NCBI GenBank assembly: GCA_963667255.1
Contig: OY762940.1
Location: 736,001 to 800,000 of the forward strand
Direction: 5' to 3'
DNA from: Candidatus Cloacimonadota bacterium
GTDB lineage: Bacteria; Cloacimonadota; Cloacimonadia; G963667145
DNA: 64,000 nt
The notes beneath the pieces were generated by a model. It was not told the DNA's origin. It worked only from the letters and a program-made list of their open reading frames with translations, and did not search any database. The position numbers and the translations under genes were made by a program. Position 1 is the stretch's first letter. Every line of letters begins with the position of its first letter. Positions 269 through 55,163 of this stretch are shown one piece after another.

Positions 269-688
269 ATGGAGAAAGTTGTCTTTACAAACGGTTGTTT
301 CGATATTTTGCATTTCGGGCATGTGGCTTATTTGCAAGAGGCGGCTTCTTTGGGCGACAGATTGGTGGTCGGACTGAATAGCGATGCATCTGTCAAAAGG
401 CTAAAAGGCGACAATCGACCGATTAATTCCCAAGACGAGAGAAAGGCTGTCCTTGAGGCTCTGTCTTGCGTGGATGAGGTTGTTGTTTTTGATGAAGATA
501 CCCCTATCGAGCTTATTAAAAAGGTGAAGCCTGATGTTTTGGTTAAAGGTGGTGATTGGTCGCCGGAGCAAATTGTTGGCAGCGATTTTGTGTTGGCACG
601 AGGTGGAGAGGTCAGAAGCCTTAAATTTGTTGATGGGTTTTCCTCTACCGGAGTGATTGAGAAAATTTTGGAAGTGTATGGAAGATAA
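269..688 (+). CDS. rfaE2: D-glycero-beta-D-manno-heptose 1-phosphate adenylyltransferase (stand-alone HldE domain II)
   Basis: Motifs [30 protein letters not shown] and KGGDW. Confidence 0.93.
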
Positions 689-1067
689 TCAAGAATTTGG
701 TGTTGTTAAGTCTCGTGAAGGTAAGGTATATACTTTGGAGTTGGGCAATAATAGCGGTTGCCATGGTTGTCTTTTGGCGGGTGTTTGTAATCGTCAGGGG
801 AAGATTGTAAAGGTCAATTCCGATTTGGAAATGGAGATTGGCGAAAAAGTTTCCTTGGAAGTCAAAGCAAGTGACAGGATTCTTTCCTCTTTCGTCGTTT
901 TTGTCGTTCCCATTATTTTGATGATATGTTTCTATTTTTTGGGTGGTCTGTTTCTTGATGGGCAAACTAAACCAACTTTCTTCTCCTTCTTGGGACTTAT
1001 TCTCGGGGCTTTGGTTATCAGATTTGTTGATAAGAGAGCTAAAATTGAAGTGGAGATAACGAAATGA
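678..1067 (+). CDS. RseC/MucC family (SoxR-reducing system) membrane protein
   Basis: CxxCxxxxxC motif ([10 protein letters not shown]) followed by two TM helices; ATG at 678 preferred as start. Confidence 0.75.
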
Positions 1068-1789
1068 TTGCCAGTATTATTTTGGCAGCAGGCAAGGGAA
1101 CTCGCATGAATTCCACTCTTCCTAAGGTTGCTATCGATTTTGCGGGTAAACCGATGATTAACAGAGTCATTGAAGTTGCCGAGAGTTTTGGCAGTGAGCG
1201 GATTTGTGTGGTGGTTGGTTACAAAAAAGATATTGTTAAGTCGGTAATAACCGCTCCAAATATTGAGTTTGTTGAGCAAAAACAGCAGTTGGGAACGGGA
1301 GATGCTGTTGGGGTTTGCAGAGACGCTTTGTCGGATTTTGACGGAACTTTGGTTGTTTTGTGTGGAGATACTCCCGTCTTGCAGGCGGAAACGATTACGG
1401 AGCTTATCGATTACCATCAAAGCAGAAAATATAAGTGCACGGTGTTGACGACGAAAATGGATAATCCTGCCAGTTATGGACGAATTGTTCGTGATGTAAA
1501 TGGCGATTTGCAAGAGATAGTGGAGTTCAAGGACGCTTCCGAGCGAGTAAGAAATATAGATGAAATTAATAGCGGGATTTACTGTTTTGATGCTCGGGCA
1601 CTTTTTTCGGCTTTGCAATTGGTGAGGAGCGATAACGCTCAAGGCGAATATTATTTGACGGACACTATAGCCATTTTGAAATCACAAGGTCACAAGGTCG
1701 GAGCTTTTATTTGCAAAAATTCCATAGAGATTACGGGAATTAATTCCATGGATGAGCTGCAAGAGTTGGAGAAATCTTTTCCCGACTAA
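1064..1789 (+). CDS. GlmU-like N-acetylglucosamine-1-phosphate uridylyltransferase, N-terminal domain only
   Basis: ILAAGKGTRMNS.LPK, QLGTGDAV, YGRIVRD, EINSGIYCF and NAQGEYYLTD; no hexapeptide acetyltransferase domain. Confidence 0.88.
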   Translation: MIASIILAAGKGTRMNSTLPKVAIDFAGKPMINRVIEVAESFGSERICVVVGYKKDIVKSVITAPNIEFVEQKQQLGTGDAVGVCRDALSDFDGTLVVLCGDTPVLQAETITELIDYHQSRKYKCTVLTTKMDNPASYGRIVRDVNGDLQEIVEFKDASERVRNIDEINSGIYCFDARALFSALQLVRSDNAQGEYYLTDTIAILKSQGHKVGAFICKNSIEITGINSMDELQELEKSFPD

Positions 1790-3759
1790 TTTTGCGGTGT
1801 AATTCTTTTTTCTTTATATAAACTGTAAGCACTTTGCTCTATCGCATAAACCTTTTTGAGTAAAGTTTCCTTTAATTTAGGTTTGTTTTCTATCTCTTCA
1901 TTTTCCCAAAGGCTGTAAAGTTTGGTTTCTTTGTCCCCAAATTCTCCGGTAAGATAGTATCTGCCTTGCAAATACCCGAATTTTGAGTTTCGGACAATCA
2001 CAGCATAATCTTTGGTTTTAGATTTTTCTAATAAATTTTTTCCCCAAAAACTGGCACTATAATTCATATTCAATATTCCCAAAATGGTAGGAGCAATGTC
2101 CATTTGGTTGGCTATGTGTGTGATTTTCTTGGGAGATAAATACTTTGGAGCGTAGAAGAGTGCAGGGACAAAAGATTTTCTATAATCAAAAGGGAAATCA
2201 TGATGAAGAGTCTGCGAGTGGTCCCCGACAAAGACAAAGAGAGTGTTATCAAAATAAGGTTTTGTCTTCATCTTTTTTATAAATTTACCGATGCACCAAT
2301 CGACATATTTAAAAGTGTTGTAGTTGTCGTTTAGCTCGCCTCCGTCCAACACTTGCCCGAAAGCGTAATGAGGGACTGTGTATGGAGGATGGTTTGTCAG
2401 GCTCATCATGGTAAGCAAGAAAGGCTTTTTATCCGAATATGCTTTATCAGCTTTTTCTATGAGTTTATCAAAAACAAATTCGTCGGGAACGCCCCACTTG
2501 GAGATAAAATCTCCTCTATCAAAATCGCTTTGGTCAACAAAATTATCGAATCCCTTGGAGATAAAAAATCCTTTCATATTGTCATATTGCACATCTCCTC
2601 CGTAGCAGAACCAAGTTTGATAACCTTTGTCTTTCAAAACGGAAGCCAAAGTGCTCATCGTTTGTTGCCCTTCAGTTTGATGCATTATGGACTTTCCTAC
2701 AAGCGGTGGCCAAGAGCAAAGAATGGCAGACAGCCCTTTGTTTGTTCTTTGTCCGCAGGAGAAGAATTGCGTGCATAATACGCCATTTTTTGATAGAGCA
2801 TCAAAGTATGGGGTTAGCTTTTTGTCATATCCAGTAGCCCCTGTAAGTTCTGCCGAGAAAGTCTCCAAGATAATTAAGACGACATTTAGTTTTCTCGCTT
2901 TTTTTGATGAAGTAATTCGTTTGTAAAAAGGGAAATTTTCATCGAGATAACCACCTTGGGTTATGTTGTTCTTTACAAAGGAAATAGCGTCTTTATTTGA
3001 GTCGAAGAGTGAAATTTTTTCTTGGAAGTTCTCTTTTGCGGTTTTTTCGGCATAATAGATATTTCGGTAGAGGTTGTAAACAGGGTTGAGTGTCAGTTGG
3101 TTGAGCATATTATTGGTGGAAAAAAAAGCTCCTCCCCAGTTCAGTTGATTGGTGCCGATAGAGCCTCGTGCTGCCACAAAAAGCCCTCCTGCAAAAACCA
3201 AAAAAAACACAAATCTTTTGAGAAGATTCTTGAAAGAAAATTTTGTTTTAATGGGCATGCTTTTTATAACTAAGTGAATGATAAACAAATAGATAAGGGC
3301 AACAATTAAAAAGCCTCCCAAATATTTTAGGATAGGATATTTAGACCAAATCATATCCCACAGCACATCCAAATTACTGTTCAAATATTCGATAGCGGTC
3401 AGATTTAGGTGGGAATTGTATTCGGCAAAAAATTCAACATCGATTAGCGTAAGAGCCAGCACTATCACGAAGATAAGCGAAGGCAAATAGCCCAAAATGA
3501 AGCGGGAAATTTTGGAAAACTCCACACCGAGAAAGGGGATTATGCCGATTAGAAAGAAAGGAGCTATGAGATATGCCAGCAAACTGCAATCCATTTTTGC
3601 ACCGATTAAGAAGGCTTTCAAAAGCTCTTGCCAAGGGATTTCGGGGAAACTGTATTGAAATTTGTAATAGAATAAGCCTCTTGCGAGTGCCAAAAAAATC
3701 AAATCAATTATAAAAAGTTTCAGGAAAAATCTGTAGTTGTAGGGAATTAAATTTCTCAT
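1786..3759 (-). CDS. LTA synthase / phosphoglycerol transferase family (alkaline phosphatase superfamily) membrane protein
   Basis: Five N-terminal TM helices, NVVLIILETFS, catalytic Thr in GQRT, LTNHPPY and FVGDH. Confidence 0.88.
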   Translation of the reverse strand: MRNLIPYNYRFFLKLFIIDLIFLALARGLFYYKFQYSFPEIPWQELLKAFLIGAKMDCSLLAYLIAPFFLIGIIPFLGVEFSKISRFILGYLPSLIFVIVLALTLIDVEFFAEYNSHLNLTAIEYLNSNLDVLWDMIWSKYPILKYLGGFLIVALIYLFIIHLVIKSMPIKTKFSFKNLLKRFVFFLVFAGGLFVAARGSIGTNQLNWGGAFFSTNNMLNQLTLNPVYNLYRNIYYAEKTAKENFQEKISLFDSNKDAISFVKNNITQGGYLDENFPFYKRITSSKKARKLNVVLIILETFSAELTGATGYDKKLTPYFDALSKNGVLCTQFFSCGQRTNKGLSAILCSWPPLVGKSIMHQTEGQQTMSTLASVLKDKGYQTWFCYGGDVQYDNMKGFFISKGFDNFVDQSDFDRGDFISKWGVPDEFVFDKLIEKADKAYSDKKPFLLTMMSLTNHPPYTVPHYAFGQVLDGGELNDNYNTFKYVDWCIGKFIKKMKTKPYFDNTLFVFVGDHSQTLHHDFPFDYRKSFVPALFYAPKYLSPKKITHIANQMDIAPTILGILNMNYSASFWGKNLLEKSKTKDYAVIVRNSKFGYLQGRYYLTGEFGDKETKLYSLWENEEIENKPKLKETLLKKVYAIEQSAYSLYKEKRITPQN

Positions 3760-4238
3760 AAAATGTTGTCCTTATTAATGAAATTTGTTATTTCTTCTAT
3801 TTCTGTGTTGGCGTTGTAAACAGGCAAAGAGTTGTATTTTAGGAAGCAGTTTGAGTATATTCCGCTCAAAAAATCAACGCCTCGTAAGTCGGCATTGTTC
3901 AGCTCTTTTTCGTCAACTGCACAAAAAATTTTGTAATCGTATTTTTTTTCGAGATTCTCTCCGATTAAAAAATCGGTATCAAGTTTGGATAAAATCTCGC
4001 TAAAGTTCGTTTTTTCGTTCAAGTAAAAAAAAGTATTTTCCGCATCTTGAGCGATGATAGAATCTGCTCCGGCTTGTTTTGCTCTGCCTGTATCGGAGTT
4101 TTTCCTGTCCAACGAGATAGTCGGGGAAAACTTCAGATAGGCGACTTTGCAGTTTTGTTTTTTAAAAAAGTTTATTAATTTCACCGCTGTGGTGGTTTTG
4201 CCGGATTTTTTGGTGCCACAAATAGAAACGATTTTCAT
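3756..4238 (-). CDS. MobB-like P-loop protein (molybdopterin-guanine dinucleotide biosynthesis protein B family)
   Basis: GTKKSGKTT Walker A motif and D+KNSDT.R..AGA motif. Confidence 0.7.
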   Translation of the reverse strand: MKIVSICGTKKSGKTTTAVKLINFFKKQNCKVAYLKFSPTISLDRKNSDTGRAKQAGADSIIAQDAENTFFYLNEKTNFSEILSKLDTDFLIGENLEKKYDYKIFCAVDEKELNNADLRGVDFLSGIYSNCFLKYNSLPVYNANTEIEEITNFINKDNIL

Positions 4239-5302
4239 TTTTTCTGTAGAAGCTCTTTTATTTTAGCGGTTACTCGTTGAGAAGATTTGTCATCGCAATA
4301 ATCGTAAATCATCCTCTTGTCATCCTCAATAAGTGCCAAGCGTTCATCGTCGGGCTCGCAAACTTTTCCCAAAGCATCGGTTAGTTCTTGCGGAGAGTTT
4401 ATGTGGACAAAACTTTTCAGCCACGAATTGATATCCTCTTGCAATACTGGTTGCCCATCGGAGTGCTTGTCGTTCGTATTGTAAATGATGCCAGACTTAT
4501 TCATCGCCAAAAATTCGTTCATTACGCTCGAACCCTCCGTGATAATCGCATCGGAAGCCACCATATAAGGCATTATGTTTACTTCGGCTTCAGGAACCAA
4601 AATCAAATGCGGATTGTGTTTGGCGATTTTTTCCACAAAGCGATGTTGCTTGTGGCTGGCATATTTCCCTGCCCACGAATACGGATGGAGTTTGATAATT
4701 ACATTGTAATCTTGGCAATTCGCCAGTTCGGGAGTCAGGTCGAAAATGGAAGTCGGCTTGTATGACGGAGCGTAAAGCACTATCTTTTTTTGCGGGTCGA
4801 GCCCCAGTTTTTTTACCACTTCATCGCGACTGTATTTCCCGTTGAACAATTGGTCGAGTTTTGGCAACCCGAGAGCAAAAATGTCGTTGGGGTCTAAATA
4901 CTTCTCCAAAAGCTTTTTGCGATATTGCCCTTCCACGAAGCGAATGTAGCGGACTTTGCCGGCTTGTTCGGCGAGTTTTCTGTATCTTTGAGTTTTGATG
5001 CTGACCGCATGCTCTATATTGCAAAGCAGAGCGTTAGTAAACTCTTGCGGATTTTTCAGAGTGTCGCCACAAATTATGGCATCAAATCCGTGAGTTTGTG
5101 AAGTTATGGGGAAGTCTTTGAAACTTTTGGCAATTTTTTTAGTCTGTGAAAGCAAAAATACACCCCAAAAGCGTTTTTGCATTTTGCCAATTCTCAAGTG
5201 TAACTCAAACTGTGGGTCTTTGCTCATCTCTTCCCAGAGGGGAGCGAAACTCATCCAGTAATACTCTTGGACTAAATCGAAAAGAATTTTGAATTTTTGC
5301 AT
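4235..5302 (-). CDS. CDP-glycerol glycerophosphotransferase (TagB/TagF-like) family protein
   Basis: GLPKLD, LYAPSY, IIKLHP and SDAIITEGSSVMNEF. Confidence 0.8.
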   Translation of the reverse strand: MQKFKILFDLVQEYYWMSFAPLWEEMSKDPQFELHLRIGKMQKRFWGVFLLSQTKKIAKSFKDFPITSQTHGFDAIICGDTLKNPQEFTNALLCNIEHAVSIKTQRYRKLAEQAGKVRYIRFVEGQYRKKLLEKYLDPNDIFALGLPKLDQLFNGKYSRDEVVKKLGLDPQKKIVLYAPSYKPTSIFDLTPELANCQDYNVIIKLHPYSWAGKYASHKQHRFVEKIAKHNPHLILVPEAEVNIMPYMVASDAIITEGSSVMNEFLAMNKSGIIYNTNDKHSDGQPVLQEDINSWLKSFVHINSPQELTDALGKVCEPDDERLALIEDDKRMIYDYCDDKSSQRVTAKIKELLQKK

Positions 5303-5304
5303 AA

Positions 5305-6480
5305 TTACTTGCTATTGAGTGCGTTATCCAAAGCTATTATCAAATCGTCGCAATCTTCCAAGCCGATAGACAGGCGAATCATGGAGGGTGTCAGCCCAAA
5401 TTTTGCCAACTCTTCTTGCGGATAGCAGAAGTGTGTCATGGCGGCAGGCACCTCTATCAGCGATTCGCAATCTCCCAAAGAGACGGCTAAGCTGAAGATA
5501 TCCAATTCGTTAGCAAATTTTACGGCTCGGTCTAATCCGCCTTTTATCTCAAAACTGATGATAGCTCCGAACTTTCCCGACATCTGTTTGTCGGCGATTT
5601 CGTGATTTTTGAAATTAGTCAGTCCCGGGTAAGAGACATTTTGCACGGTAGGGTGATTGTTCAGAAACTCCGCAATTTTTTTGGCTGACTCACAGTGTCT
5701 CTCCATTCGTAGTCCCAGAGTTTTTATCCCTCGCAGAGTGAGGAAGGCGTTGAATGGGCTCATCACTCCGCCGAGTTCGCACATATAGTCGAACTTCAGT
5801 TTGTTAATGTATTCCAAATCTTTGGAAATAGCAACTCCGCCCAAAGCATCGCCGTGTCCGCAGAGATATTTGCTGCTACTATGCACCACGACATCGCATC
5901 CCAAGTCCAAAGGATTGGTCAGACAAGGAGTGGCAAAAGTGTTGTCGATTACAACTTTCAGCTTGTTTTTATGGGCGATTTTGCAAATTTCGGCGATGTC
6001 GATTATGTCCAAAGTCGGATTTGCGGGAGTCTCAAAATAAACAACTTTAGTGTTTGGAGTTATTGCATTTTGCAGGTTGAGAGCATCTGTTAAATCGGCG
6101 AATTTGGAAGAAACTTTGTATCTTGGCAAGAGATTGGAAATAACGCTATAAGATGAGCCGTAGATGGTTTTGTGGGCGATTACTTCATCTTGAGGATTGA
6201 GCAGAGAGAGCAGTGTTGATGAGATGGCAGCCATTCCTGAGGCGAAAGCTACCGCCCCTGCTCCGTTTTCCAGTTGAGTCATTTTCTCTTCAAACTCTCG
6301 TAATGTTGGGTTGTTGCCTCTGGTGTAAACAAAGTCGTTGCTCTGAAAATTCATCACCTTTTGCACATCTTCTACAGAGTCGAAGCAAAAAGTGGAACTC
6401 ATTGCTATTGGAGAGTTTAGAGCGTTATACGGATTTTTTCGGTGTTTTGCAAAATGAATGGCTTTGGTATCGAATTTCAT
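5305..6480 (-). CDS. PLP-dependent methionine gamma-lyase / cystathionine gamma-synthase family enzyme
   Basis: YTRGNNPT, FASGMAAI, DNTFATP, HSSSKYLCGHGD (PLP Lys) and LAVSLGD. Confidence 0.92.
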   Translation of the reverse strand: MKFDTKAIHFAKHRKNPYNALNSPIAMSSTFCFDSVEDVQKVMNFQSNDFVYTRGNNPTLREFEEKMTQLENGAGAVAFASGMAAISSTLLSLLNPQDEVIAHKTIYGSSYSVISNLLPRYKVSSKFADLTDALNLQNAITPNTKVVYFETPANPTLDIIDIAEICKIAHKNKLKVVIDNTFATPCLTNPLDLGCDVVVHSSSKYLCGHGDALGGVAISKDLEYINKLKFDYMCELGGVMSPFNAFLTLRGIKTLGLRMERHCESAKKIAEFLNNHPTVQNVSYPGLTNFKNHEIADKQMSGKFGAIISFEIKGGLDRAVKFANELDIFSLAVSLGDCESLIEVPAAMTHFCYPQEELAKFGLTPSMIRLSIGLEDCDDLIIALDNALNSK

Positions 6481-7899: not shown

Positions 7900-9075
7900 A
7901 TGTTAAGTAAAAGAGCAACCGATATTAAGTCTTCACCGACCATGGCTGTGGCTGCCAAAGCTAAGCAGATGGTTTCACAAGGTATTGATGTGGTAAATTT
8001 TGGAGTTGGTGAGCCGGATTTCAATACCCCTGATTATATAAAAGAAGCAGGTAAAAAAGCGATTGATGATAATTTCACAAGATATACGCCTGCACCCGGT
8101 ATGCCAGAGTTGAAAAAAGCTATTGCCAAAAAGTTCAAAGAGCAAAACGGTTTGGACTTTGAGCCTGACCAAATAATTGTTTCGCCAGGGGGCAAAGCCA
8201 GCCTGTTTTATTTGATGTTTACCATTTGTGATGAGGGGGAGAAAATAATTGTTCCTGCTCCTTATTGGGTGACATATCCTGCTCAAATCGAGCTTTCACA
8301 AGGGATACCTGTGATTCTTGAGACCAAACAGAAAAATGATTTCAAAATCGATATAAACGAGCTTAAATCTTTGGTAGCCAAAGAGGGTAAGATAAAAGCG
8401 ATTATCATTAACTCTCCGTCCAATCCTACCGGTGCTGTATATACCAAAGAGGAGTTGAAAGCTATTGGCGATTTTTGTGTTGAGAAAAATATTTTGATTA
8501 TTTCCGATGAGATATATGAAGAGCTTGTTTACGAAGGCAAACATGTATCGATTGCCGAGTGTTCGGACGAAATCAAAAAATTGACTGTAGTTGTGAACGG
8601 AGCTTCCAAAGCGTATGCGATGACAGGCTGGCGTTTGGGATATACAGCCGGTCCAAAAGAGATTATCACCAAGATGGGTAGTATCCAGTCGCAAGTTTCT
8701 TCCAATGTCAACTCTATCAGCCAAAAAGCTTTCATCACAGCTTTGGAAGTGAAAACTGACGATATTGACAAGATGCGAACAGAGTTTGCAACTCGAAGAA
8801 AGTTTATGATATCCGAGTTCAACAAAATCGACGGAATCAAATGCTCTATGCCTACAGGGGCTTTTTATGCTTTCCCCGATATTTCCGCTTATCTCGGCAC
8901 TAAAGTGAAAGATGACTTGGAGTTTTGTAATTATATGCTGGAGAATTTTCACATTGCCATCGTTCCGGGTTCTGCATTCGGTGCTCTGGGGTGCGTGAGA
9001 TTCTCTTATGCCAATTCCATGGAAAACTTGGTTGAAGGTATCAAGAGGTTTAAAGAAGGATTAAAAAGCCTATAA
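7900..9075 (+). CDS. aspC: Aspartate aminotransferase (class I/II PLP-dependent)
   Basis: GEPDFNTP, NSPSNPTG, SDEIYE and SKAYAMTGWRLGY; ATG at 7900 after AAGGAGAG. Confidence 0.9.
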   Translation: MLSKRATDIKSSPTMAVAAKAKQMVSQGIDVVNFGVGEPDFNTPDYIKEAGKKAIDDNFTRYTPAPGMPELKKAIAKKFKEQNGLDFEPDQIIVSPGGKASLFYLMFTICDEGEKIIVPAPYWVTYPAQIELSQGIPVILETKQKNDFKIDINELKSLVAKEGKIKAIIINSPSNPTGAVYTKEELKAIGDFCVEKNILIISDEIYEELVYEGKHVSIAECSDEIKKLTVVVNGASKAYAMTGWRLGYTAGPKEIITKMGSIQSQVSSNVNSISQKAFITALEVKTDDIDKMRTEFATRRKFMISEFNKIDGIKCSMPTGAFYAFPDISAYLGTKVKDDLEFCNYMLENFHIAIVPGSAFGALGCVRFSYANSMENLVEGIKRFKEGLKSL

Positions 9076-11228
9076 TGAAAAAAGTATTTATCCTCATCTT
9101 TTTGCTTTTAAGTTCACTTGCTTTTGCCCAATTGCCAGATGCTTTGCAGGGGCGATATAAGTTTGTGTTTCCGATGGGAGACGACTTTTATAAAGTCTGT
9201 AATGGCAAATATTGGGGAGTGGTGAATGCAGAGAATGAGTTAGTTATATCTATTGAATTTCAACAGGTAGGTAATTTTTCCGACAACTTGATAGCTGTTA
9301 GGAAGGATAATCGCTGGGGATATCTTGATAGAGACGATAAAGTTGTAATAGATTTCATGTATCAGGAAGCTGATGAATTTGAAGACGGAATTGCTAGAGT
9401 TCGTGCTGATTGGAAGTATGGATATATTAACAAAGAAAATAAAGTAGTTATTCCCATGATATATGATTTGCTGAGTCGTCCGGGGGAAGGTATAATTACT
9501 TACAAAAAGGGTCTTGAATTTGGTATTTTAAATACAGAAGGGAAAAGGCTTACTTCTAAGGAATACTTTCCCAAAGGTCTTCGCAGGATATATTTAAAAG
9601 GTTATTACGGATTTGTAAATACAAAGGGACAAGCGATTATTCCACTACAATACAAGAAACTAGAGCATCTTGTAAAAGATTTTTACAGTTTTTTACTAAA
9701 TGGCAAGGAAGGGATTTTGAATCCCTATACTTTGAAAATTTTGGTGCCTAACGATAAATATGATGAAATTTTGGGATACAAAGATGGATTTTTTTATGTT
9801 GTGAGAGATGGGAAGTATGGCTTAATTGATGATGTTGGGAAGGTAGTAATCGAGCCTAAAGATTATGATTCTATTTGCTATTTTAGAGGGAGAATCGCTA
9901 CGGTGCGTTCTGGTGAAAACTATGGTGTAATTAATCGTGCAGGTGATTTGATAGTCCCAGTCAGATACAAGGAAATTTCCGTGATGGATGATGGCTATAT
10001 TAGGGCATCTAACGAAGGAGACTATTTTCCTATAGGAAGAGGGACAAATGTATATTTCAGTCACAAATTTATAGCAGATACTTTGAGTGATATGTGTGTT
10101 GTTGTTAGTGATGGGATGAGTAAAATCTTGAGTGCGAAAACAGGCAAGTTGCTGACAAAAAAAAGTTATGACTATGTTGATACTACTTTGTATAGAAATT
10201 CTTTGATTTCTATTACGGACAATAAGACTCCCAAGCATTATGGGATGCTGGATATTCGCACAGGGAAAGAGATTGTCCCTATTAAATTTGAATCTTTGAC
10301 AAGAACTCTTTTTGATGATATTTTTATTATAATGGAGGATGGGAAGAAAGGTATAATTTATATTGATAAGGCGAGCTATCATTATATTGTTAAGCCTCAA
10401 TACCAAAAGTTAATTTTGGTGAAGGTTGCTCCCAACCTTCTTAGGATTAGCACGGAAGAGGGATATGGATTGATTTCCGAAGACGGCAAATTTCTTTTGC
10501 CTATGAAATATGATAAAATAACTCCTTTTAATCGGATTGGTCTCAAAGTTGAATTGAACAAAAAGTTTGGGGCTGTTAATGCCGAAGGGAAGATTTATGT
10601 TCCGGTTGAATATATTAGCTTGTCTTCATACGATAATTCCGGCTATTTAATTGCTAAAAAAGTTGATAAATTCGGAGTTTTGGATAATACAGGTCGGGTA
10701 GCTGTGCCATTTAGTTATGATAAAATTTTGCCTCTTTATAATGATGTGGGCATTTGTATGCTTAATGGTGGTTATGGATTTTTGGGACCTAAGGGGAAAA
10801 TACGCATCCCTACCGATTATCAATCTGTTGTGGGGCTGAGTGGCGATTTTGTTCAAGTTCAATTTGCTTATAAGTTTGGAATTATGACCAAAAAAGGGAA
10901 ACTATTAATCAAACCAAGCTTGGATGCAATAATTGACAGGAATGATGGGTTTTTTGCTTTGTCCAAAGATGGCAAATTAGGATTGATGAATAGTGCAGGC
11001 AAGGTAATTACTCCCTTTATCTATAAAAGCATAGGTTCTTTTGCTGAAGGTTATGCGATTGTAAAAAATGAAGGTCGTTGTGGATTTATTGACGAAAGTG
11101 GGCGTGTTCGAATTCCGATTATTTATAATGGAGCGGTCAATTTTAAAGATGGAACAACTTTTGTTGTTTTGAACGGGCAACAATTGAAGATTAATAAAAA
11201 AGGGGAAATTTTACCTTACGTTTATTAA
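9075..11228 (+). CDS. Secreted WG-repeat (WG_beta_rep) protein
   Basis: Signal peptide plus many K(W/Y/F)G(Y/F/L)I(N/D)..G..VIP..YD repeats. Confidence 0.85.
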   Translation: MKKVFILIFLLLSSLAFAQLPDALQGRYKFVFPMGDDFYKVCNGKYWGVVNAENELVISIEFQQVGNFSDNLIAVRKDNRWGYLDRDDKVVIDFMYQEADEFEDGIARVRADWKYGYINKENKVVIPMIYDLLSRPGEGIITYKKGLEFGILNTEGKRLTSKEYFPKGLRRIYLKGYYGFVNTKGQAIIPLQYKKLEHLVKDFYSFLLNGKEGILNPYTLKILVPNDKYDEILGYKDGFFYVVRDGKYGLIDDVGKVVIEPKDYDSICYFRGRIATVRSGENYGVINRAGDLIVPVRYKEISVMDDGYIRASNEGDYFPIGRGTNVYFSHKFIADTLSDMCVVVSDGMSKILSAKTGKLLTKKSYDYVDTTLYRNSLISITDNKTPKHYGMLDIRTGKEIVPIKFESLTRTLFDDIFIIMEDGKKGIIYIDKASYHYIVKPQYQKLILVKVAPNLLRISTEEGYGLISEDGKFLLPMKYDKITPFNRIGLKVELNKKFGAVNAEGKIYVPVEYISLSSYDNSGYLIAKKVDKFGVLDNTGRVAVPFSYDKILPLYNDVGICMLNGGYGFLGPKGKIRIPTDYQSVVGLSGDFVQVQFAYKFGIMTKKGKLLIKPSLDAIIDRNDGFFALSKDGKLGLMNSAGKVITPFIYKSIGSFAEGYAIVKNEGRCGFIDESGRVRIPIIYNGAVNFKDGTTFVVLNGQQLKINKKGEILPYVY

Positions 11229-11230
11229 AG

Positions 11231-11330
11231 TTTTGTTTTTTGGGGTGCTTTTTTCTAAATTGTAGAATAAAGGCTGAGATGATACTCATATTACCTGATG
11301 CAGATAATGCTGCCGTAGGAATTGATAGAA
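11231..11330 (+). promoter_or_regulatory. TPP (thiamine pyrophosphate) riboswitch aptamer
   Basis: GGGGTGC...GGCTGAGA..ATACTCA..ACCTGAT-GCAG-ATAATG-CTGC-CGTAGGAA reproduces the THI-box consensus. P2 is TGGG/CTCA, P3 is TTCTA/TAGAA and P5 is GCAG/CTGC. Confidence 0.88.
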
Positions 11331-11375
11331 CTCTTGGTTTTTATTTTGAAAAATGGAAGCCGAGAGTTTTTTATT
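11328..11375 (+). terminator. Intrinsic terminator-like expression platform of the TPP riboswitch
   Basis: AACTCTTGGTTT pairs with AAGCCGAGAGTT and is followed by TTTTATT. Confidence 0.7.
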
Positions 11376-11388
11376 GCGAAGGGAAAAG

Positions 11389-11991
11389 ATGGAAAGATGT
11401 CGTTGGGTTGATTTGAATAGCAAAGAGTATATCGATTATCACGATAAATTTTGGGGTGTTCCTGTTGTCGATGACAGATTGTTGTTTGAAATGTTGTGCT
11501 TGGAGAGTGCTCAAGCCGGTTTGTCATGGCTAACCATATTGAAGAAGCAGCCCAATTATAAATTGGCATTTGATGATTTTGACTCGCAACTTGTTGCAAA
11601 TTATGATCAAACAAAAATAGAAGAACTTTTGGGTAACAAAGGAATTATTAGAAATAAGAGAAAAGTTTTGTCCTGCATACGAAATGCAAAAGTGTTTTTG
11701 GAAATTCAAAAGGAGTTTTCGAGTTTTGCTTATTACTTATGGAGATTTGTAGATTTTACCCCTTTTGATAGTAAAATAGAGAATAGTCAGCAGTTACCGA
11801 TTTGGACGCCCCTTGCCAAGGAGGTATCTGCTGATCTAATAAAGAGAGGAATGAATTTTGTCGGTCCAACGATTATTTACTCTTTCTTGCAGGCTGTAGG
11901 CGTGGTTAACGACCATATAGTGTCTTGCTTCCGTTACGAAGAAGTTAAGGGGTTAGAGCACATTGTAAGAGAAAAATTGATTGAGAACTAA
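11389..11991 (+). CDS. tag: DNA-3-methyladenine glycosylase I
   Basis: RCRW...YHD..WGVPV.DDR.LFEMLCLESAQAGLSW, IIRNKRK, FVGPTIIYSFLQAVG and NDH...CF Zn ligands; ATG 11389 lies downstream of the terminator. Confidence 0.93.
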   Translation: MERCRWVDLNSKEYIDYHDKFWGVPVVDDRLLFEMLCLESAQAGLSWLTILKKQPNYKLAFDDFDSQLVANYDQTKIEELLGNKGIIRNKRKVLSCIRNAKVFLEIQKEFSSFAYYLWRFVDFTPFDSKIENSQQLPIWTPLAKEVSADLIKRGMNFVGPTIIYSFLQAVGVVNDHIVSCFRYEEVKGLEHIVREKLIEN

Positions 11992-12006: not shown

Positions 12007-12043
12007 TTGACATTATTTAGTCATTTAGCTAAATAATTAAAAT
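12007..12043 (+). promoter_or_regulatory. Sigma70-type promoter overlapped by an inverted repeat (candidate ArsR operator)
   Basis: TTGACA at 12007-12012; ATTATTTAG-N8-CTAAATAAT inverted repeat at 12012-12037. Confidence 0.65.
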
Positions 12044-17738: not shown

Positions 17739-18849
17739 GGGAGTGTGCAAATAACTGGGTCTGAAATAAGACCTAATTATGTTTGACAGAATAAGTTATG
17801 AACATTTATTAAAATGCCATGAGTATAATCAAAAAAAACGCTGTCCAAATTGTGATAGCTTAAACACAAAAAAGAAGGGATATATTTTCTCTGAAAGAAC
17901 AACTAATCGTGGGAAAATTAAAGTCAAAACTCAACGATTTTATTGTAAAGATTGCCAAATAAGTTTTACCAATTTTGGATATAATAAGAGAACTCATTTT
18001 GCACCAAAATTCAAAGATAAGGTTGTTACTGACTATATTTCAACCAAAAGTTCTCTTTCTGAAGTTGCTAAAAGACATGGGATTTGTAAAAATAGTACTC
18101 TTAATTGGATACCTCAGCGAGCTAATTTATATCAGGATAATGTGTTACACAGCAATATAGATGAGACAACAATTTATATTGATGGCAAGGAAATTAAGAT
18201 AAACGGTAAGCGAAAAGTTGTCTTAGTCGCCAGTAGCAAACTACTTGATAAACCAATATATTACAAGATTTATGATAGAGAACATAGTAGTTCATCTGAA
18301 GACTTTTTGAATAGACTAAAAAAAATGTATGACAACAAAATAATTGGGATTGTGTCAGATTTTGGGCGAGGGAAGTGCTTTGTTAAGCCAGTTAACCAAC
18401 TTTTTGAAGATGTTCCACATCAAATTTGCTTGGTTCATTATTTAAGAAGCGTTAATATCAATGTTCCTAAAACAAAAAAGAGTAAGTTTTTTAGACGAAA
18501 TATTTTCTTTAAGAACTTGATTAAGAGCATTTTAAATGCTGAAACTTTACAAGAAGCTGAAAATAATTTAAGTTCGCTTAATCACTATGAAAAATTTTTT
18601 CGCCTAAAAATTCATAAGCGTTTTATTAAATCAATTAATCGAAACTTTGGTTTATTAACTGCTCATTTTCATTACGATTTTTTGGATAAAACAACAAATA
18701 AAATTGAAAATATTAATCGACAATTGAATAGGAAATTAAAAAATTTAGACGGATTTAAATCTGAAAAAAATATGAATCATTTTTTGAAAATTTGGTTCAA
18801 TAATTATTCAAAAGGAGTGGAAATTAGACCCAATTAAATGCACGCTCCC
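17739..18849 (+). mobile_element. IS256-family (Zn-ribbon variant) insertion sequence, copy 1, 1111 bp
   Basis: 24-bp imperfect TIRs GGGAGTGTGCAAATAACTGGGTCT / AGACCCAATTAAATGCACGCTCCC; 8-bp TSD AAAAAATA at 17731-17738 and 18850-18857. Confidence 0.93.
17779..18837 (+). CDS. Transposase (N-terminal Zn ribbon + HTH + Mutator/IS256-type DDE)
   Basis: CPNC...QRFYCKDC; IYIDG, IVSDFG, HQICLVH and TTNKIENINRQL. Confidence 0.9.
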   Translation: MFDRISYEHLLKCHEYNQKKRCPNCDSLNTKKKGYIFSERTTNRGKIKVKTQRFYCKDCQISFTNFGYNKRTHFAPKFKDKVVTDYISTKSSLSEVAKRHGICKNSTLNWIPQRANLYQDNVLHSNIDETTIYIDGKEIKINGKRKVVLVASSKLLDKPIYYKIYDREHSSSSEDFLNRLKKMYDNKIIGIVSDFGRGKCFVKPVNQLFEDVPHQICLVHYLRSVNINVPKTKKSKFFRRNIFFKNLIKSILNAETLQEAENNLSSLNHYEKFFRLKIHKRFIKSINRNFGLLTAHFHYDFLDKTTNKIENINRQLNRKLKNLDGFKSEKNMNHFLKIWFNNYSKGVEIRPN

Positions 18850-30055: not shown

Positions 30056-31166
30056 GGGAGTGTGCAAATAACTGGGTCTGAAATAAGACCTAATTATGTT
30101 TGACAGAATAAGTTATGAACATTTATTAAAATGCCATGAGTATAATCAAAAAAAACACTGTCCAAATTGTGATAGCTTAAACACAAAAAAGAAGGGATAT
30201 ATTTTCTCTGAAAGAACAACTAATCGTGGGAAAATTAAAGTCAAAACGCAACGATTTTATTGTAAAGATTGCCAAATAAGTTTTACCAATTTTGGATATA
30301 ATAAGAGAACTCATTTTGCACCAAAATTCAAAGATAAGGTTGTTACTGACTATATTTCAACCAAAAGTTCTCTTTCTGAAGTTGCTAAAAGACATGGGAT
30401 TTGTAAAAATAGTATTCTTAATTGGATACCTCAGCGAGCTAATTTATATCAGGATAATGTGTTACACAGCAATATAGATGAGACAACAATTTATATTGAT
30501 GGCAAGGAAATTAAGATAAACGGTAAGCGAAAAGTTGTCTTAGTCGCCAGTAGCAAACTACTTGATAAACCAATATATTACAAGATTTATGATAGAGAAC
30601 ATAGTAGTTCATCTGAAGACTTTTTGAATAGACTAAAAAAAATGTATGACAACAAAATAATTGGGATTGTGTCAGATTTTGGGCGAGGGAAGTGCTTTGT
30701 TAAGCCAGTTAACCAACTTTTTGAAGATGTTCCACATCAAATTTGCTTGGTTCATTATTTAAGAAGCGTTAATATCAATGTTCCTAAAACAAAAAAGAGT
30801 AAGTTTTTTAGACGAAATATTTTCTTTAAGAACTTGATTAAGAGCATTTTAAATGCTGAAACTTTACAAGAAGCTGAAAATAATTTAAGTTCGCTTAATC
30901 ACTATGAAAAATTTTTTCGCCTAAAAATTCATAAGCGTTTTATTAAATCAATTAATCGAAACTTTGGTTTATTAACTGCTCATTTTCATTACGATTTTTT
31001 GGATAAAACAACAAATAAAATTGAAAATATTAATCGACAATTGAATAGGAAATTAAAAAATTTAGACGGATTTAAATCTGAAAAAAATATGAATCATTTT
31101 TTAAAAATTTGGTTCAATAATTATTCAAAAGGAGTGGAAATTAGACCCAATTAAATGCACGCTCCC
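30056..31166 (+). mobile_element. IS256-family (Zn-ribbon variant) insertion sequence, copy 2, 1111 bp
   Basis: Same TIRs as copy 1; 8-bp TSD TATACTTC at 30048-30055 and 31167-31174. Confidence 0.93.
30096..31154 (+). CDS. Transposase, near-identical to 17779-18837
   Basis: 352 aa with two amino-acid differences from copy 1 (KKRCP/KKHCP and KNSTL/KNSIL). Confidence 0.9.
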   Translation: MFDRISYEHLLKCHEYNQKKHCPNCDSLNTKKKGYIFSERTTNRGKIKVKTQRFYCKDCQISFTNFGYNKRTHFAPKFKDKVVTDYISTKSSLSEVAKRHGICKNSILNWIPQRANLYQDNVLHSNIDETTIYIDGKEIKINGKRKVVLVASSKLLDKPIYYKIYDREHSSSSEDFLNRLKKMYDNKIIGIVSDFGRGKCFVKPVNQLFEDVPHQICLVHYLRSVNINVPKTKKSKFFRRNIFFKNLIKSILNAETLQEAENNLSSLNHYEKFFRLKIHKRFIKSINRNFGLLTAHFHYDFLDKTTNKIENINRQLNRKLKNLDGFKSEKNMNHFLKIWFNNYSKGVEIRPN

Positions 31167-41617: not shown

Positions 41618-41797
41618 ATGAAAAATATTAAATTCAAAAATTGCGTAACCTTGGAAGAGATAACCAAAGGGTTTTTACTGTATAGGCAACTTTGCAGTTG
41701 GGGTAAAAAGCCTGAGGGGAACTTCGAGTTCTTGGGCGAGACTTTTGAATTGAAAATGAATCGGACGGAAATAATAATAAAAAGGATTAATTTGTGA
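41618..41797 (+). CDS. Small hypothetical protein
   Basis: 59-aa ORF whose stop overlaps the next start (GTGA); no recognisable motif. Confidence 0.35.
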   Translation: MKNIKFKNCVTLEEITKGFLLYRQLCSWGKKPEGNFEFLGETFELKMNRTEIIIKRINL

Positions 41798-43905
41798 CTT
41801 ATCTGTGGCAAGACATTAAACTGGAAATTAAGAACAACCTTTGGCAGGTGTTATCACTGATTTTCTTGTCGTTTGCGTTCGTTTATTCTCTGAGAATTTT
41901 TGGAGTGGATTGTATTTCGTTTGCCAAAAATCAAGAATTGTTATTCGCCAAAAGCTCTGCCGGCAGTTTGTATAAAAGCAATTTCTTTTCGGGAATACCT
42001 GCTTTATTTAGTCCTCCGATTATAGATAATTTGTTCTTCGATTCCATTTTGGTTTTTCCTTTTGTTTCTTTGGCGGCAGGCTCTGTGGGCGTTTATTTTT
42101 TCTTGCACTATGGCAAAGGTGTATCAAGCTGGATTGCCGTGATAGCTTCGTCAGTTTGGTTGGTGTTGCCCTTTTGGCAATATCTGGACGCCTCACAAGA
42201 TTTTGCTTTGCTCAGATATTTTGCGATTTTGCCATGGGTAATTTTTGCAGTGCGTTATTTGCGGGAAAAGCAGTCGTTGTGGGCATTTTCTTGCGTGAGT
42301 TTTTCTTTTGTGTTGTTGTTTAGGGTTTGCGACCCTCAAGCATTTTGGTTCTTTTTGGTTTTTTTCTTTTTGGCACTAATACTGTTTTTCTTGGAAAATC
42401 TTTTGCAAAGGAAAGCGTTGGATTATTCCAAATTTTTGCTTCTGATTGTTACCGCTTTTTTGTTTGCCGTTTTTGCAGCATCACAGCCGCTGTTCAGCTT
42501 TTTTAAGCTCTTTGGGAATTTTATTTACTCCAACGACTTCACTGTCTCTTTCGATGTGTTTACCGGCTTTTTTGATGCAAACTCTTTTTTGATGATGGGA
42601 GTTATCTTTTTGGTGATAGCAGGTTTTGGGTTTAGGGGGAACATATTGCTTGTAATCTCTTTTTTGTCGCTTCTCATTTTGCCGTTTTGCACAGATTTTT
42701 TCCCTGGGGCTTGGATAGTAAAAAATCCTTTTCTGTTGTTTGGATTTAGCCTTACTTTTGCAGTGGTTTTGTTCGGCATAGGTTTGGACAGAATATTGAA
42801 AATGAAGTTGAGCCTATTGGAAAAAGGACGACACTATTTTGTTTTTCTGCTTCTTTCGGTTTTTTTACTTTCGATTTTCATAGTGTGGAGTGGGAATTTT
42901 AGCTTCCGCTCATTTTTCTTGTTGTTGCAAATCTTGTCATTGTTTCTATTTGTCTTGGTTTTGTCCTTCCGCCGTAGATTTGATAATCATTTTGCTTTTC
43001 TCTTTCTGATTTTTCTTTTGATTTTCCCGATGTTCGCCATCAGCGGATTTCGTCATAGGTTGCATTATGCTCCGGTCAATAACGACTATTACAATTCGTT
43101 GGATAGACTGGTGGCTGACAATGCTGGTGATTACAGGATTTACCCGCTGGAGAGATTGTTTACCGACAATCGTCTTGGGCAAAAATTTGAGGTAATAGGT
43201 GGTTCTGCCCGCATCATTCAGCGGAATTTCAGACAGCTTTTGCAAAATTGCTTGGAGTTTAAGCTTAGCAGTGATTTGCCGATAAATTGGAATGTTATCG
43301 ATATGTTGGCTGTGAAGTATGTTTTGCGGGAAAACGCTTCGCTCAAGGTCGATGAACTTGCTTATTTGGACTATGATGTGAAGACGAAAATCTCCGTGTA
43401 TGAGAACAAAAATTATCGGGGGAAATTGTGGTTTGTGGACAAGGTTGTCTCATTGCAAAATCCCGAATATGTATTCAAGGCGATTAATTCGGCGGATTTT
43501 GACCCTTTTCAAGAAGCGATAGTTGACAGGGATTTTTCTTTTGATGTTGCCATACCCGAAAAATACAGTGCCAAAATTATCGAGAATGCAAACGACAAAA
43601 TCCAATTGAGAATATTCACGGATGTGCCGTCTTTCTTAGTTTTTAGCAACAATTTTTCTGATGATTGGTATGCATTTGATGATACGGGAGGAATTAAGAT
43701 TTTTAGGGTAAACTATTTTCTGCAAGGGTTTTACCTCACTCCCGGGTTGCATAATATCTCCTTGGAATACATACCGGTTTTGGAGCGAGTTACGCAGGTG
43801 ATTTCTTTTATTTTCTTGGTGTTGCAGATTGTGCTGTTGATTGCCGGCTACTACTTGTATGTAAAAAATAATTATGCCAATAAAACAATTTATATCTTGA
43901 AATGA
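41794..43905 (+). CDS. YfhO-like multi-pass membrane protein (putative GT-C glycosyltransferase)
   Basis: FSGIP near the N-terminus, many TM helices, DMLAVKYV, LVFS......W.A...G..I.RVNY.LQG..L.PG.H.I.LEY.P and a C-terminal TM. Confidence 0.7.
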   Translation: MTYLWQDIKLEIKNNLWQVLSLIFLSFAFVYSLRIFGVDCISFAKNQELLFAKSSAGSLYKSNFFSGIPALFSPPIIDNLFFDSILVFPFVSLAAGSVGVYFFLHYGKGVSSWIAVIASSVWLVLPFWQYLDASQDFALLRYFAILPWVIFAVRYLREKQSLWAFSCVSFSFVLLFRVCDPQAFWFFLVFFFLALILFFLENLLQRKALDYSKFLLLIVTAFLFAVFAASQPLFSFFKLFGNFIYSNDFTVSFDVFTGFFDANSFLMMGVIFLVIAGFGFRGNILLVISFLSLLILPFCTDFFPGAWIVKNPFLLFGFSLTFAVVLFGIGLDRILKMKLSLLEKGRHYFVFLLLSVFLLSIFIVWSGNFSFRSFFLLLQILSLFLFVLVLSFRRRFDNHFAFLFLIFLLIFPMFAISGFRHRLHYAPVNNDYYNSLDRLVADNAGDYRIYPLERLFTDNRLGQKFEVIGGSARIIQRNFRQLLQNCLEFKLSSDLPINWNVIDMLAVKYVLRENASLKVDELAYLDYDVKTKISVYENKNYRGKLWFVDKVVSLQNPEYVFKAINSADFDPFQEAIVDRDFSFDVAIPEKYSAKIIENANDKIQLRIFTDVPSFLVFSNNFSDDWYAFDDTGGIKIFRVNYFLQGFYLTPGLHNISLEYIPVLERVTQVISFIFLVLQIVLLIAGYYLYVKNNYANKTIYILK

Positions 43906-44768
43906 GCGAATACAAAAGCGGGTTTGTGGCGATAGTTGGTAAGCCAAATGTCGGGAAATCTACTCTAATGAATAAAATATTGGGGTCGAAGATTTCCATA
44001 ACCTCGGCAAAGCCACAGACCACGAGGCAGAGCGTGAAAGGCGTTTACAGCGATAACTCAACTCAGATAGTTTTCTTGGACACTCCGGGGTTTGTAGAGC
44101 CTCGCTATGAGTTGCACAACAAGCTGCTGGAATACATCGATTCGGGAATGAAAAGAGCTGATATGATAGCTTTCGTCTCTTGTTTTGCGGGATTTCCATC
44201 GGAGTTTGATAAATTGGTGATGTCGTCGATAGCGAAGTTCAATGTTCCCAAAATATTGCTGTTTAACAAAAGCGACTTGCATCAGGGGAATATCGCCGAT
44301 TTGGAATTGCCGAACGGATTGTTTGACGAGATAAAATTTGTCAGTGCCCTGAAGGACGATAGGGAAGATTTGGTAAATTTGTTTAGAAAATATTTGCCTC
44401 ACTCCGTGCAGCTTTATGACCCGCAATATTTGACCGATATGCCTATGAGATTTATAGTTGCGGAGTTTATTAGGGAGCAGATTTTCAGAAATTATGGAGC
44501 GGAACTGCCTTATTCTGTGGCGGTGACCATCGAGAACTATTTGGAGTATGAGAAGAAGGTGGAGATTTTTGTCAATATTTGGGTCGAGCGGAGGTCGCAA
44601 AAGATAATCATTATTGGTTCTGGAGGCAGTGGTTTAGCCAAGATTAGACAGGAGGCTCAAAAAGAGATTTATCGTCTGGATGGCAGAAGAGTGAAGTTGA
44701 ATTTGTGGGTAAAAATTAAGCCAGATTGGAAGAAAAAGAAAAATGCTTTGTCCGAGTTTGGATACTAA
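43902..44768 (+). CDS. era: GTPase Era
   Basis: GKPNVGKSTL, KPQTTR, DTPG, NKSD and KH domain IIIGSGG. Confidence 0.95.
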   Translation: MSEYKSGFVAIVGKPNVGKSTLMNKILGSKISITSAKPQTTRQSVKGVYSDNSTQIVFLDTPGFVEPRYELHNKLLEYIDSGMKRADMIAFVSCFAGFPSEFDKLVMSSIAKFNVPKILLFNKSDLHQGNIADLELPNGLFDEIKFVSALKDDREDLVNLFRKYLPHSVQLYDPQYLTDMPMRFIVAEFIREQIFRNYGAELPYSVAVTIENYLEYEKKVEIFVNIWVERRSQKIIIIGSGGSGLAKIRQEAQKEIYRLDGRRVKLNLWVKIKPDWKKKKNALSEFGY

Positions 44769-44912
44769 CTGGAAAAATTCAAAAAAACTCTTGACTAACT
44801 ACCTTTGGACAGGAGATTTATTTTATCATATTCTATTTTGGGAATTTATGAAGTTTTTTTAGATTTTAACAAAAATTAAAATATACTGTAATTTATTGAA
44901 TTATAAGGAGAA

Positions 44913-45152
44913 ATGATGTCAAAAAATAATAGAGGAACAGGGCTTAGAGAGTTACCGAAAAGAGGAAGAGGAGAGTGTCCTTTGTGTGGGAGAACTGCGA
45001 TTAAGCTTGTGTATGAAGTGAAAAAAGGTGATGAGACTTTGAAGGTTTGCAAAAACTGTCGTCACAAAAAATTTGTAGAGCCTAAAAAAGAGGAAAAAGC
45101 GGTTGAGCCGAAAGTAAAAGCGGAAGCTGATACCGAAGCTACAGAAGCTTAA
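44913..45152 (+). CDS. Small basic Zn-ribbon protein of unknown function
   Basis: Strong TAAGGAG SD; RGRGECPLCGR...VCKNCR; E/K/A-rich tail. Confidence 0.7.
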   Translation: MMSKNNRGTGLRELPKRGRGECPLCGRTAIKLVYEVKKGDETLKVCKNCRHKKFVEPKKEEKAVEPKVKAEADTEATEA

Positions 45153-45168
45153 ATAGTTTTGGGAGTGT

Positions 45169-47067: not shown

Positions 47068-47068
47068 G

Positions 47069-48334: not shown

Positions 48335-48352
48335 TACAAAAAGGGGAAAATT

Positions 48353-55161: not shown

Positions 55162-55163
55162 CG

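Follow-up and report, generated by a model that had tools for sequence, protein, structure and literature searches.

We propose that a TPP riboswitch in a Cloacimonadota genome probably controls a thiamine salvage operon in trans. Under this proposal, which draws on sequence comparisons and predicted folds, low TPP would permit read-through of the riboswitch terminator, and a hairpin in the read-through RNA would pair with the 5′ end of the distant thi operon and activate it. The riboswitch lies in the window, by which we mean the whole 64,000-nucleotide stretch of DNA that was analyzed. The window genome (G000) is a single contig of 1.59 Mb, and it was compared with five sister genomes (G001 to G005) from the same Cloacimonadota genus. 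The features of the window on which the argument draws are as follows.

9075 to 11228, plus strand: gene for a WG-repeat protein (PF14903, by Pfam), the last of a UDPGP-aspC-WG run; in six of six genomes the same gene stands before this site
11231 to 11339, plus strand: aptamer of a TPP riboswitch (RF00059) whose P3 is extended, from a covariance-model match, with pairs kept in five genomes
11263 to 11279, plus strand: strand predicted to form the antiterminator (GCUGAGA together with the P3 3′ side), pairing with 11332 to 11348 when the aptamer is unfolded
11328 to 11375, plus strand: intrinsic terminator (hairpin and U-run), from folding; the terminator alone is kept in G002
11389 to 11991, plus strand: tag, a gene of the DNA-3-methyladenine glycosylase I family (PF03352), 200 aa, host of the hairpin
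11785 to 11837, plus strand: RNA hairpin in tag codons 133 to 150, a candidate trans-acting regulator, from a synonymous freeze and folding
11808 to 11815, plus strand: the seed, GCCCCUUG, in the loop of this hairpin; it is exactly complementary to CAAGGGGC at the thi operon
12007 to 12034, plus strand: promoter-like TTGACA plus palindrome before oxidoreductase-thioredoxin-arsR genes, from the sequence and a nearby arsR

The TPP riboswitch and its genomic setting

An earlier note on this DNA, made from the sequence alone, described a complete TPP aptamer ahead of tag. A search with Infernal and RF00059 confirmed this assignment, yielding a match over the full model length (58.6 bits, E 6.5e-9, gathering score 54.3), and all of the aptamer motifs that the note had named are present in the sequence. 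This is the only TPP riboswitch found with RF00059 in the G000 genome. The aptamer is present in five of the six genus genomes, each time after the same WG-repeat gene, and is missing from G002; the four sister-genome aptamers score 61 to 63 bits. A second aptamer was not found, either with Rfam around the thi leaders of G000 and G001 or with an nhmmer profile at eight loci and across the whole genome, and a pattern scan of metagenome contigs for the genus aptamer gave 0 matches.

Sequence comparison indicates that the aptamer is maintained rather than decaying, contrary to a possibility raised in the earlier note. The core in the sister genomes is 87 to 95% identical to that of G000, compared with 37 to 56% at aspC four-fold sites, and 53 of 63 core positions are invariant across the five genomes versus 11 of 103 four-fold sites. 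All 79 cells are paired over 16 named pairs, covering the GCUGAGA and CCUGA/AAU/GUAGG core and helices P2 to P5. Note that the pair changes comprise one two-sided and two one-sided events and that 43 of 500 shuffles do as well for these five closely related genomes, and therefore aptamer covariation alone is not significant. The P1 helix is indeed weak, with two non-standard pairs, as had been pointed out. However, on inspection by eye, riboswitches of the class that are linked to thi genes seem to have a P1 of similar weakness, and so this feature need not signal decay. The RNA would presumably bind TPP.

The aptamer is followed by a terminator hairpin of 19 pairs (11328 to 11369, −21.1 kcal/mol) with a U-run at 11367 to 11372. 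A terminator before tag had been recognized previously, although its stem was then given as 12 bp. The 176-nt region folds with a z score of −3.66, and 0 of 200 shuffles are equally stable; a simple terminator scan did not pick up the hairpin at 11328 to 11375. We also considered whether the terminator is a genome-wide repeat and rejected this idea, as the hairpin form is intergenic only at this site. When the transcript is folded as if cut at the terminator loop, a 17-bp antiterminator helix forms between 11263 to 11279 and 11332 to 11348. Before the 3′ arm is made, the 5′ arm of the terminator is predicted to be paired to the aptamer with a probability of 0.56 to 0.63 in five of five genomes, and the same pairing is predicted at 0.51 to 0.88 in the 14 scorable thi-linked terminator switches of family f3 (this comparison comprised 23 rows, one of them without a terminator call). 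Because the antiterminator helix uses the GCUGAGA strand, it excludes the folded aptamer, and the expression platform is predicted to be exclusive with the folded aptamer in all five genomes. The switch is therefore predicted to be of the OFF type, with TPP favoring termination. Terminator strength is 6.7 to 10.5 kcal/mol in the genus versus 1.3 to 8.9 kcal/mol in thi-linked switches, and since these terminators are stronger than most thi-linked ones, read-through may be low.

Transcription into the riboswitch likely originates from the WG-repeat gene, whose stop codon lies 2 nt ahead of the Rfam match, either by read-through or from a candidate promoter in its last codons. No clear promoter was found before the aptamer, where a directly upstream TTGACA is absent, unlike in most riboswitches of the class. 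A hexamer starting with TTG is located in the last WG codons (window 11170 to 11230), 49 to 59 nt ahead of the aptamer G-run. All five switch-bearing genomes carry TTG in this hexamer and G002 has ATG, a one-letter difference on the basis of which an internal promoter is possible.

The gene after the switch is tag in G000 and G001, an oxidoreductase gene in G003 and G004, and a thioredoxin gene in G005. With tag next in only two of the five switch-bearing genomes, the earlier view of tag as the target of the riboswitch is probably wrong. In G002, the aptamer is cleanly gone and a plain terminator is retained. Where a separate promoter had been assigned to the gene following tag, the sequence is promoter-like: at 12007 to 12034, TTGACA is overlapped by the palindrome ATTTAGCTAAAT. 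A similar element precedes trx or nox in G002, G004, and G005, and the element moves across the genus with a shuffled oxidoreductase/thioredoxin/arsR/SLAC1/permease cluster. The palindrome resembles an ArsR-type operator motif and likely marks an ArsR-type regulon. This element is outside the switch.

A conserved hairpin in the predicted read-through RNA

In all five aptamer-bearing genomes, a hairpin whose loop carries GCCCCUUG is located 3′ of the terminator; it is free-standing in three genomes and inside the tag frame in two. The free-standing form (G003 to G005) is a second hairpin with a U-run, 25 to 30 nt past the terminator. An alignment-free comparison of the five read-through regions (158 to 697 nt) recovered GCCCCTTG as the only 8-mer that they share, and no seed word occurs within 2.5 kb in G002.

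Several measurements argue that the embedded hairpin is under nucleotide-level constraint as judged from its sequence. Synonymous changes between G000 and G001 number 0 of 16 within 11785 to 11837 versus 60 of 136 elsewhere in tag (Fisher p = 2e-4). The longest unchanged synonymous run in tag is 19 codons (permutation p = 0.002), and the corresponding runs in four neighboring genes are 9 to 16, with aspC also reaching 16. The embedded hairpin has a minimum free energy of −23.7, compared with −10.1 ± 3.3 for synonymous recodings, of which 2 of 3000 are as stable and 0.4% contain the seed word. Over codons 133 to 150, the G000 and G001 genes are the two most stable of 83 Tags, and the seed word is absent from the Tag reading frame at 85 other loci. 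The hairpin segment aligns to other Tags without gaps and is therefore true coding sequence.

Homology between the embedded and free-standing hairpins was not significant by covariance model: a model built from the free-standing forms ranked the embedded hairpin third in the window (E 2.1), and another search returned none. The flanks of the embedded hairpin are nevertheless the most similar to the free-standing forms among 21 seed sites (p about 0.02), which hints at common descent. The tree gives no order for the two forms.

Hfq was not found in five of five genomes searched, and RNase J was likewise not found, whereas RNase E/G and Rho were found in all five. No RNA sequencing runs holding the stretch are listed. 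The stretch occurs unbroken and without variants in three contig sets, but these may be the source of the window itself and therefore were not counted as support.

The distant thiamine operon and its leader

Thiamine families were not found among the 50 open reading frames of the window scanned with Pfam (15 in one scan and 35 in another, with one frame in both; several gave no family), in agreement with the earlier note, which had seen no thiamine synthesis or transport gene in the 64 kb. The genus instead carries a thi operon elsewhere, in the order methyltransferase-thiM-thiE-thiL-thiD-tenA, with the TenA match below cut-off. This operon has no aptamer of its own and is located 82 to 750 kb from the switch in five genomes, the distance in G000 being about 750 kb. 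Of 41 genomes, 30 have RF00059, and these are exactly the genomes with a thiE match, which in one case scores below cut-off. Outside the genus, thiE lies at most 1.5 kb downstream of the riboswitch in 24 of 25 cases, and the 25th has a ThiD-like open reading frame. Within the genus, G002 lacks thiE, the methyltransferase gene, the aptamer, and the hairpin, and has pnuC-thiN instead. Because G002 nests with G003 to G005 in a UvrB tree (97/97), this loss represents one event. The switch thus tracks thiamine salvage. That thi genes had simply been deleted, leaving a plain orphan, was another suggestion of the earlier note; it is not supported, given the presence of a thi salvage operon elsewhere in the genome and the loss of the aptamer exactly where thiE is lost.

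Relatives carry the same cassette under a cis TPP aptamer in three of three family f6 genomes and at five of eight metagenome loci; of the other three loci, one has only 49 nt of upstream sequence and two gave partial matches. In the eight genomes of family f12, the cassette has a short leader without a riboswitch, and the riboswitch precedes thi4-thiE, which indicates that control of the cassette is not required. A second trans system in family f12 was considered and rejected, given that the riboswitch there heads thi4-thiE and no shared complementary word was found.

Some further observations concern the thiamine genes themselves. The thi set is salvage-only (thiM, thiE, thiL, thiD, and tenA-like; loci L050 and L052 to L055), and thiC of the de novo route was found in 0 of the 5 genomes searched (all except G004). 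Searches of the same five genomes gave only short or weak partial matches for thi4 and NMT1 and found pnuC and thiN only in G002, where they form a pair (L056:9493-10711) and where no TPP riboswitch was found anywhere in the genome. With regard to a precursor transporter, neither pnuC nor a clear NMT1 was seen in the four thi-bearing genomes searched. The first gene of the G000 operon (G000:C1:1586682-1587383, minus strand, locus L138) encodes a 234-aa class I methyltransferase-like protein that passed no NCBIfam cut-off. Such genes head thiM or tenA cassettes in Cloacimonadota and at metagenome loci (L183 to L201), often directly under a TPP riboswitch, and this placement makes the protein a candidate thiamine-pathway enzyme.

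The seed matches the predicted start of the thi transcript. The sequence CAAGGGGC is at G000:C1:1587449-1587456 on the minus strand, outside the window, and is invariant in the five genomes. It is the complement of GCCCCTTG, and the five thi leaders have it and four other 8-mers in common. The chance of such shared-word complementarity is about 1e-4 under a uniform model, and the choice of this operon as target, made on the basis of the ligand, preceded the discovery of the match. Note that the hairpin element is complementary to the target site and is not a copy of it. TTGC(A/T)A stands 35 to 36 nt ahead of CAAGGGGC, and an invariant TG at +27 coincides with a peak among the 256 intergenic TTGACA sites of G000. 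On account of this promoter-like spacing, CAAGGGGC is predicted to form the first nucleotides of the thi mRNA, and the putative start site is placed there. There are 21 CAAGGGGC sites in G000, two of which are intergenic, and the other intergenic one lies 1 nt after TTGACA. The thi leader ranks 2 of 891 predicted 5′ ends, and by energy alone ranks 49 of 1377 gene 5′ regions. The duplex comprises 8 bp, and only in G003 is it extended, on both partners, to 11 bp, where the additional pairs may fall ahead of the transcription start. Since the 8-bp duplex is invariant, there is no partner covariation apart from that in G003.

Folding of the thi leader predicts that its 5′ end pairs with a 3′ arm. 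A 13-codon upstream open reading frame (uORF) would thereby have its ribosome site and first codons enclosed, and in all five genomes its stop codon overlaps the start of the methyltransferase gene. Opening the seed is predicted to cost 6.9 to 9.2 kcal/mol in the folded leader versus 0.4 to 3.7 kcal/mol in the regulator loop, and the net pairing energies are −2 to −7 kcal/mol with the folded leader and −9 to −12 kcal/mol with the nascent one, in which the seed is predicted to be open. Blocking the seed is predicted to alter the energy needed to open the uORF ribosome site by −1.2 to +2.7 kcal/mol, or by 0.5 to 1.9 kcal/mol with the first codons included, with no predicted gain at the methyltransferase ribosome site.

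Two other features of this neighborhood were recorded. An exonuclease III-like gene, named by eye, lies upstream of the thi promoter at the contig ends (C1:1-400 and 1587500-1587896) and looks split only through a duplication of about 15 nt where the circle was joined; G001 seemingly has only a 3′ remnant of it there. CRISPR-Cas genes occur near the thi operon at differing positions (L052:rev 500-5965, L055, L054), with Cas9-like types in G001 and G005 and a type I-E-like set in G004, as judged by eye.

Proposed mechanism and alternative explanations

At high TPP, transcription would end at the terminator and the thi operon would stay quiet. At low TPP, antitermination would allow read-through into the hairpin, which in G000 is within the tag frame, and the C-rich loop would anneal to the complementary sequence at the 5′ end of the riboswitch-less thi operon and turn it on. 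Pairing in the cell is predicted, and the positive sign is deduced from feedback logic. In one route, the loop would imitate the 3′ arm of the leader itself and bind the nascent 5′ end, such that the outer helix stays open. The freed 13-codon uORF would then be translated, coupled to the methyltransferase gene and on through thiM-thiE-thiL-thiD-tenA. We regard this as the most likely activation route and give it about half of the remaining weight. Alternatively, pairing might shield the 5′ end from RNase E/G or prevent Rho- or hairpin-dependent termination. Tag itself probably does ordinary DNA repair and is produced as a passenger. As to origin, we tentatively entertain, while holding it somewhat doubtful, a split riboswitch, in which the sensor was separated from its operon, trans control was rebuilt by an activator inside a repair gene, and in the sister genomes that gene was deleted down to the hairpin.

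The same pairing could instead repress the thi operon or tune its stability, or the main partner of the hairpin could be another mRNA or a protein. The ribosome sites are predicted to change little and in either direction, 48 other gene 5′ regions offer pairing energies at least as favorable, and C-rich loops often repress through G-rich ribosome sites (PMC4691137). Nevertheless, the sign would be wrong for an OFF-type TPP switch whose product at low TPP repressed salvage, and an exact complement at a predicted 5′ end is present only in the thi leader, and we consider this explanation unlikely. Also decidedly unlikely is that the switch became an orphan after the thi cassette moved, and now serves mainly as the terminator of the UDPGP-aspC-WG run, with the hairpin and its complementarity being chance or a scar. 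Such a history would fit the cis riboswitch of the cassette in relatives, the varying downstream genes among sister genomes, the retention of the terminator alone in G002, and the unswitched cassette of family f12. It leaves unexplained, however, the constraint on the aptamer core with its compensatory changes (53 of 63 positions invariant, set against 11 of 103 four-fold sites), an antiterminator kept in five of five genomes, the synonymous freeze over the hairpin, and a sole shared 8-mer that complements the start of the thi leader.

We give very little credence to a riboswitch that acts in cis, either on the genes that follow it (tag, redox genes) or on the upstream mRNA at its 3′ end, and so links them to TPP. 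In G000 we see no terminator separating tag from the oxidoreductase gene, and G003 seems to have no second promoter, and thus read-through should express these genes somewhat. However, the downstream gene differs among genomes (tag in two, oxidoreductase in two, thioredoxin in one), the hairpin of G003 to G005 ends in a U-run ahead of the downstream genes, those of G004 and G005 have a separate promoter-like element, and cis action would leave the seed unexplained. Recruitment of the Tag homolog to thiamine or pyrimidine salvage, as the earlier note had entertained, is highly improbable. The start codon at 11389 stands, and the product is by sequence a Tag-family protein (243.2 bits to PF03352 against a cut-off of 25; E 7e-52 to the solved TAG in the PDB), although it falls below the NCBIfam cut-offs (TIGR00624, 191.1 < 232.5; PRK10353, 193.7 < 349) and is not filed under those families. 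It also deviates at 17 of 105 conserved columns, including the otherwise invariant Arg54, and sits on a long branch (0.69) apart from the Tags of G002 to G005 in a quick tree of 83 rows, with 3 loci left out. Against recruitment, the Zn ligands (C4, H18, H176, and C180) match the consensus of 81 other Tags, as do the pocket residues W6, Y14, Y17, W22, E39, Q42, and W47, which agree with the solved TAG as well; their retention had been claimed before, and we presume their roles from the E. coli and Salmonella TAG. Moreover, no other Tag was found in G000 or G001, whereas G002 to G005 have a different tag elsewhere that is about 50% identical. A TPP aptamer occurs at 0 of 79 other close Tag loci (a few with short upstream flanks), and three sister genomes keep the switch without that tag behind it.

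Among known systems, the proposed control in trans resembles EutX (Enterococcus faecalis) and Rli55 (Listeria monocytogenes), in which a B12 riboswitch gives a read-through RNA that sequesters EutV and inhibits (PMC7602753). There, as proposed here, a cofactor riboswitch terminates with its ligand, a conserved noncoding element lies downstream of the riboswitch terminator, and the read-through RNA controls in trans a separate locus of the same pathway. Unlike EutX and Rli55, our case involves predicted mRNA pairing and activation instead of EutV sequestration, the ligand is TPP, and the RNA is inside a protein-coding gene in two genomes. Because the aptamer is TPP-type and not B12-type, the system would work like EutX/Rli55 in outline without being a member of that group. 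SreA/SreB (SAM, Listeria), DseA (Desulfovibrio), and rnTrpL are riboswitch or attenuator loci that pair in trans with distant leaders (PMC4691137, PMC13501541, and bioRxiv 10.1101/803072). In these cases the riboswitch or attenuator RNA itself acts, in its terminated form (PMC13501541, figure legend). Here, by contrast, the seed is located beyond the terminator in all five genomes, outside the terminated RNA, so that only the ligand-free read-through form could act and the system does not belong to the SreA/SreB group; the target is also the ligand's own pathway, unlike in that group.

The closest parallels at the target are FasX of Streptococcus pyogenes, whose C-rich stretch UCAAUCCCC pairs with the 5′ end of ska mRNA and stabilizes it (PMC4691137), and PhrS of Pseudomonas aeruginosa, which opens a leader such that uof and the coupled pqsR are translated (PMC8395346). 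The thi leader combines both arrangements, a C-rich seed facing a predicted 5′ end and a coupled upstream open reading frame. The available parts of those sources do not describe FasX or PhrS as riboswitch-made or as inside the frame of another gene. With canonical cis RF00059 switches of the class, our riboswitch shares its aptamer and its terminator/antiterminator logic. Those relatives stand directly before thi4, thiE, thiD, or the same methyltransferase-thiM cassette, whereas no thiamine gene follows here and the cassette is 82 to 750 kb off behind a new structured leader. A 2026 review (PMC13501541) lists riboswitch-derived and CDS-internal sRNAs, among which, in the part available, we met no TPP case, and the corresponding parts of PMC9111926 and PMC9481103 hold nothing further on such a system. 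We found no such system in the open literature at the level of titles and abstract openings. If the trans reading is correct, a TPP riboswitch would control its own pathway by base pairing without Hfq, in mRNA-embedded and free-standing forms within one genus.

A riboswitch ahead of an unrelated gene is usually dismissed as an orphan or taken as a clue to a new function of that gene. Our findings suggest a third reading, in which the gene is the carrier of an RNA that passes the switch signal to a target elsewhere. If the riboswitch was indeed split, the birth of a small RNA from protein-coding DNA would have been caught in the act. A search recipe for other misplaced riboswitches follows, namely the comparison of words shared by read-through regions with leaders of the ligand's pathway. 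The parts are short, and the claim is therefore testable in vitro and in a reporter.

Two observations elsewhere in the window are unrelated to the switch. A run of long open reading frames (402 to 780 aa) at 41794 to 56372 gave no Pfam match at 1e-8, and several of them have signal-peptide-like starts. Two copies of a Mutator-family insertion sequence transposase lie at 17779 to 18837 and 30096 to 31154. The 1.59-Mb genome holds 17 full-length copies of this element at >99.6% identity, indicating a recent burst in a small genome.
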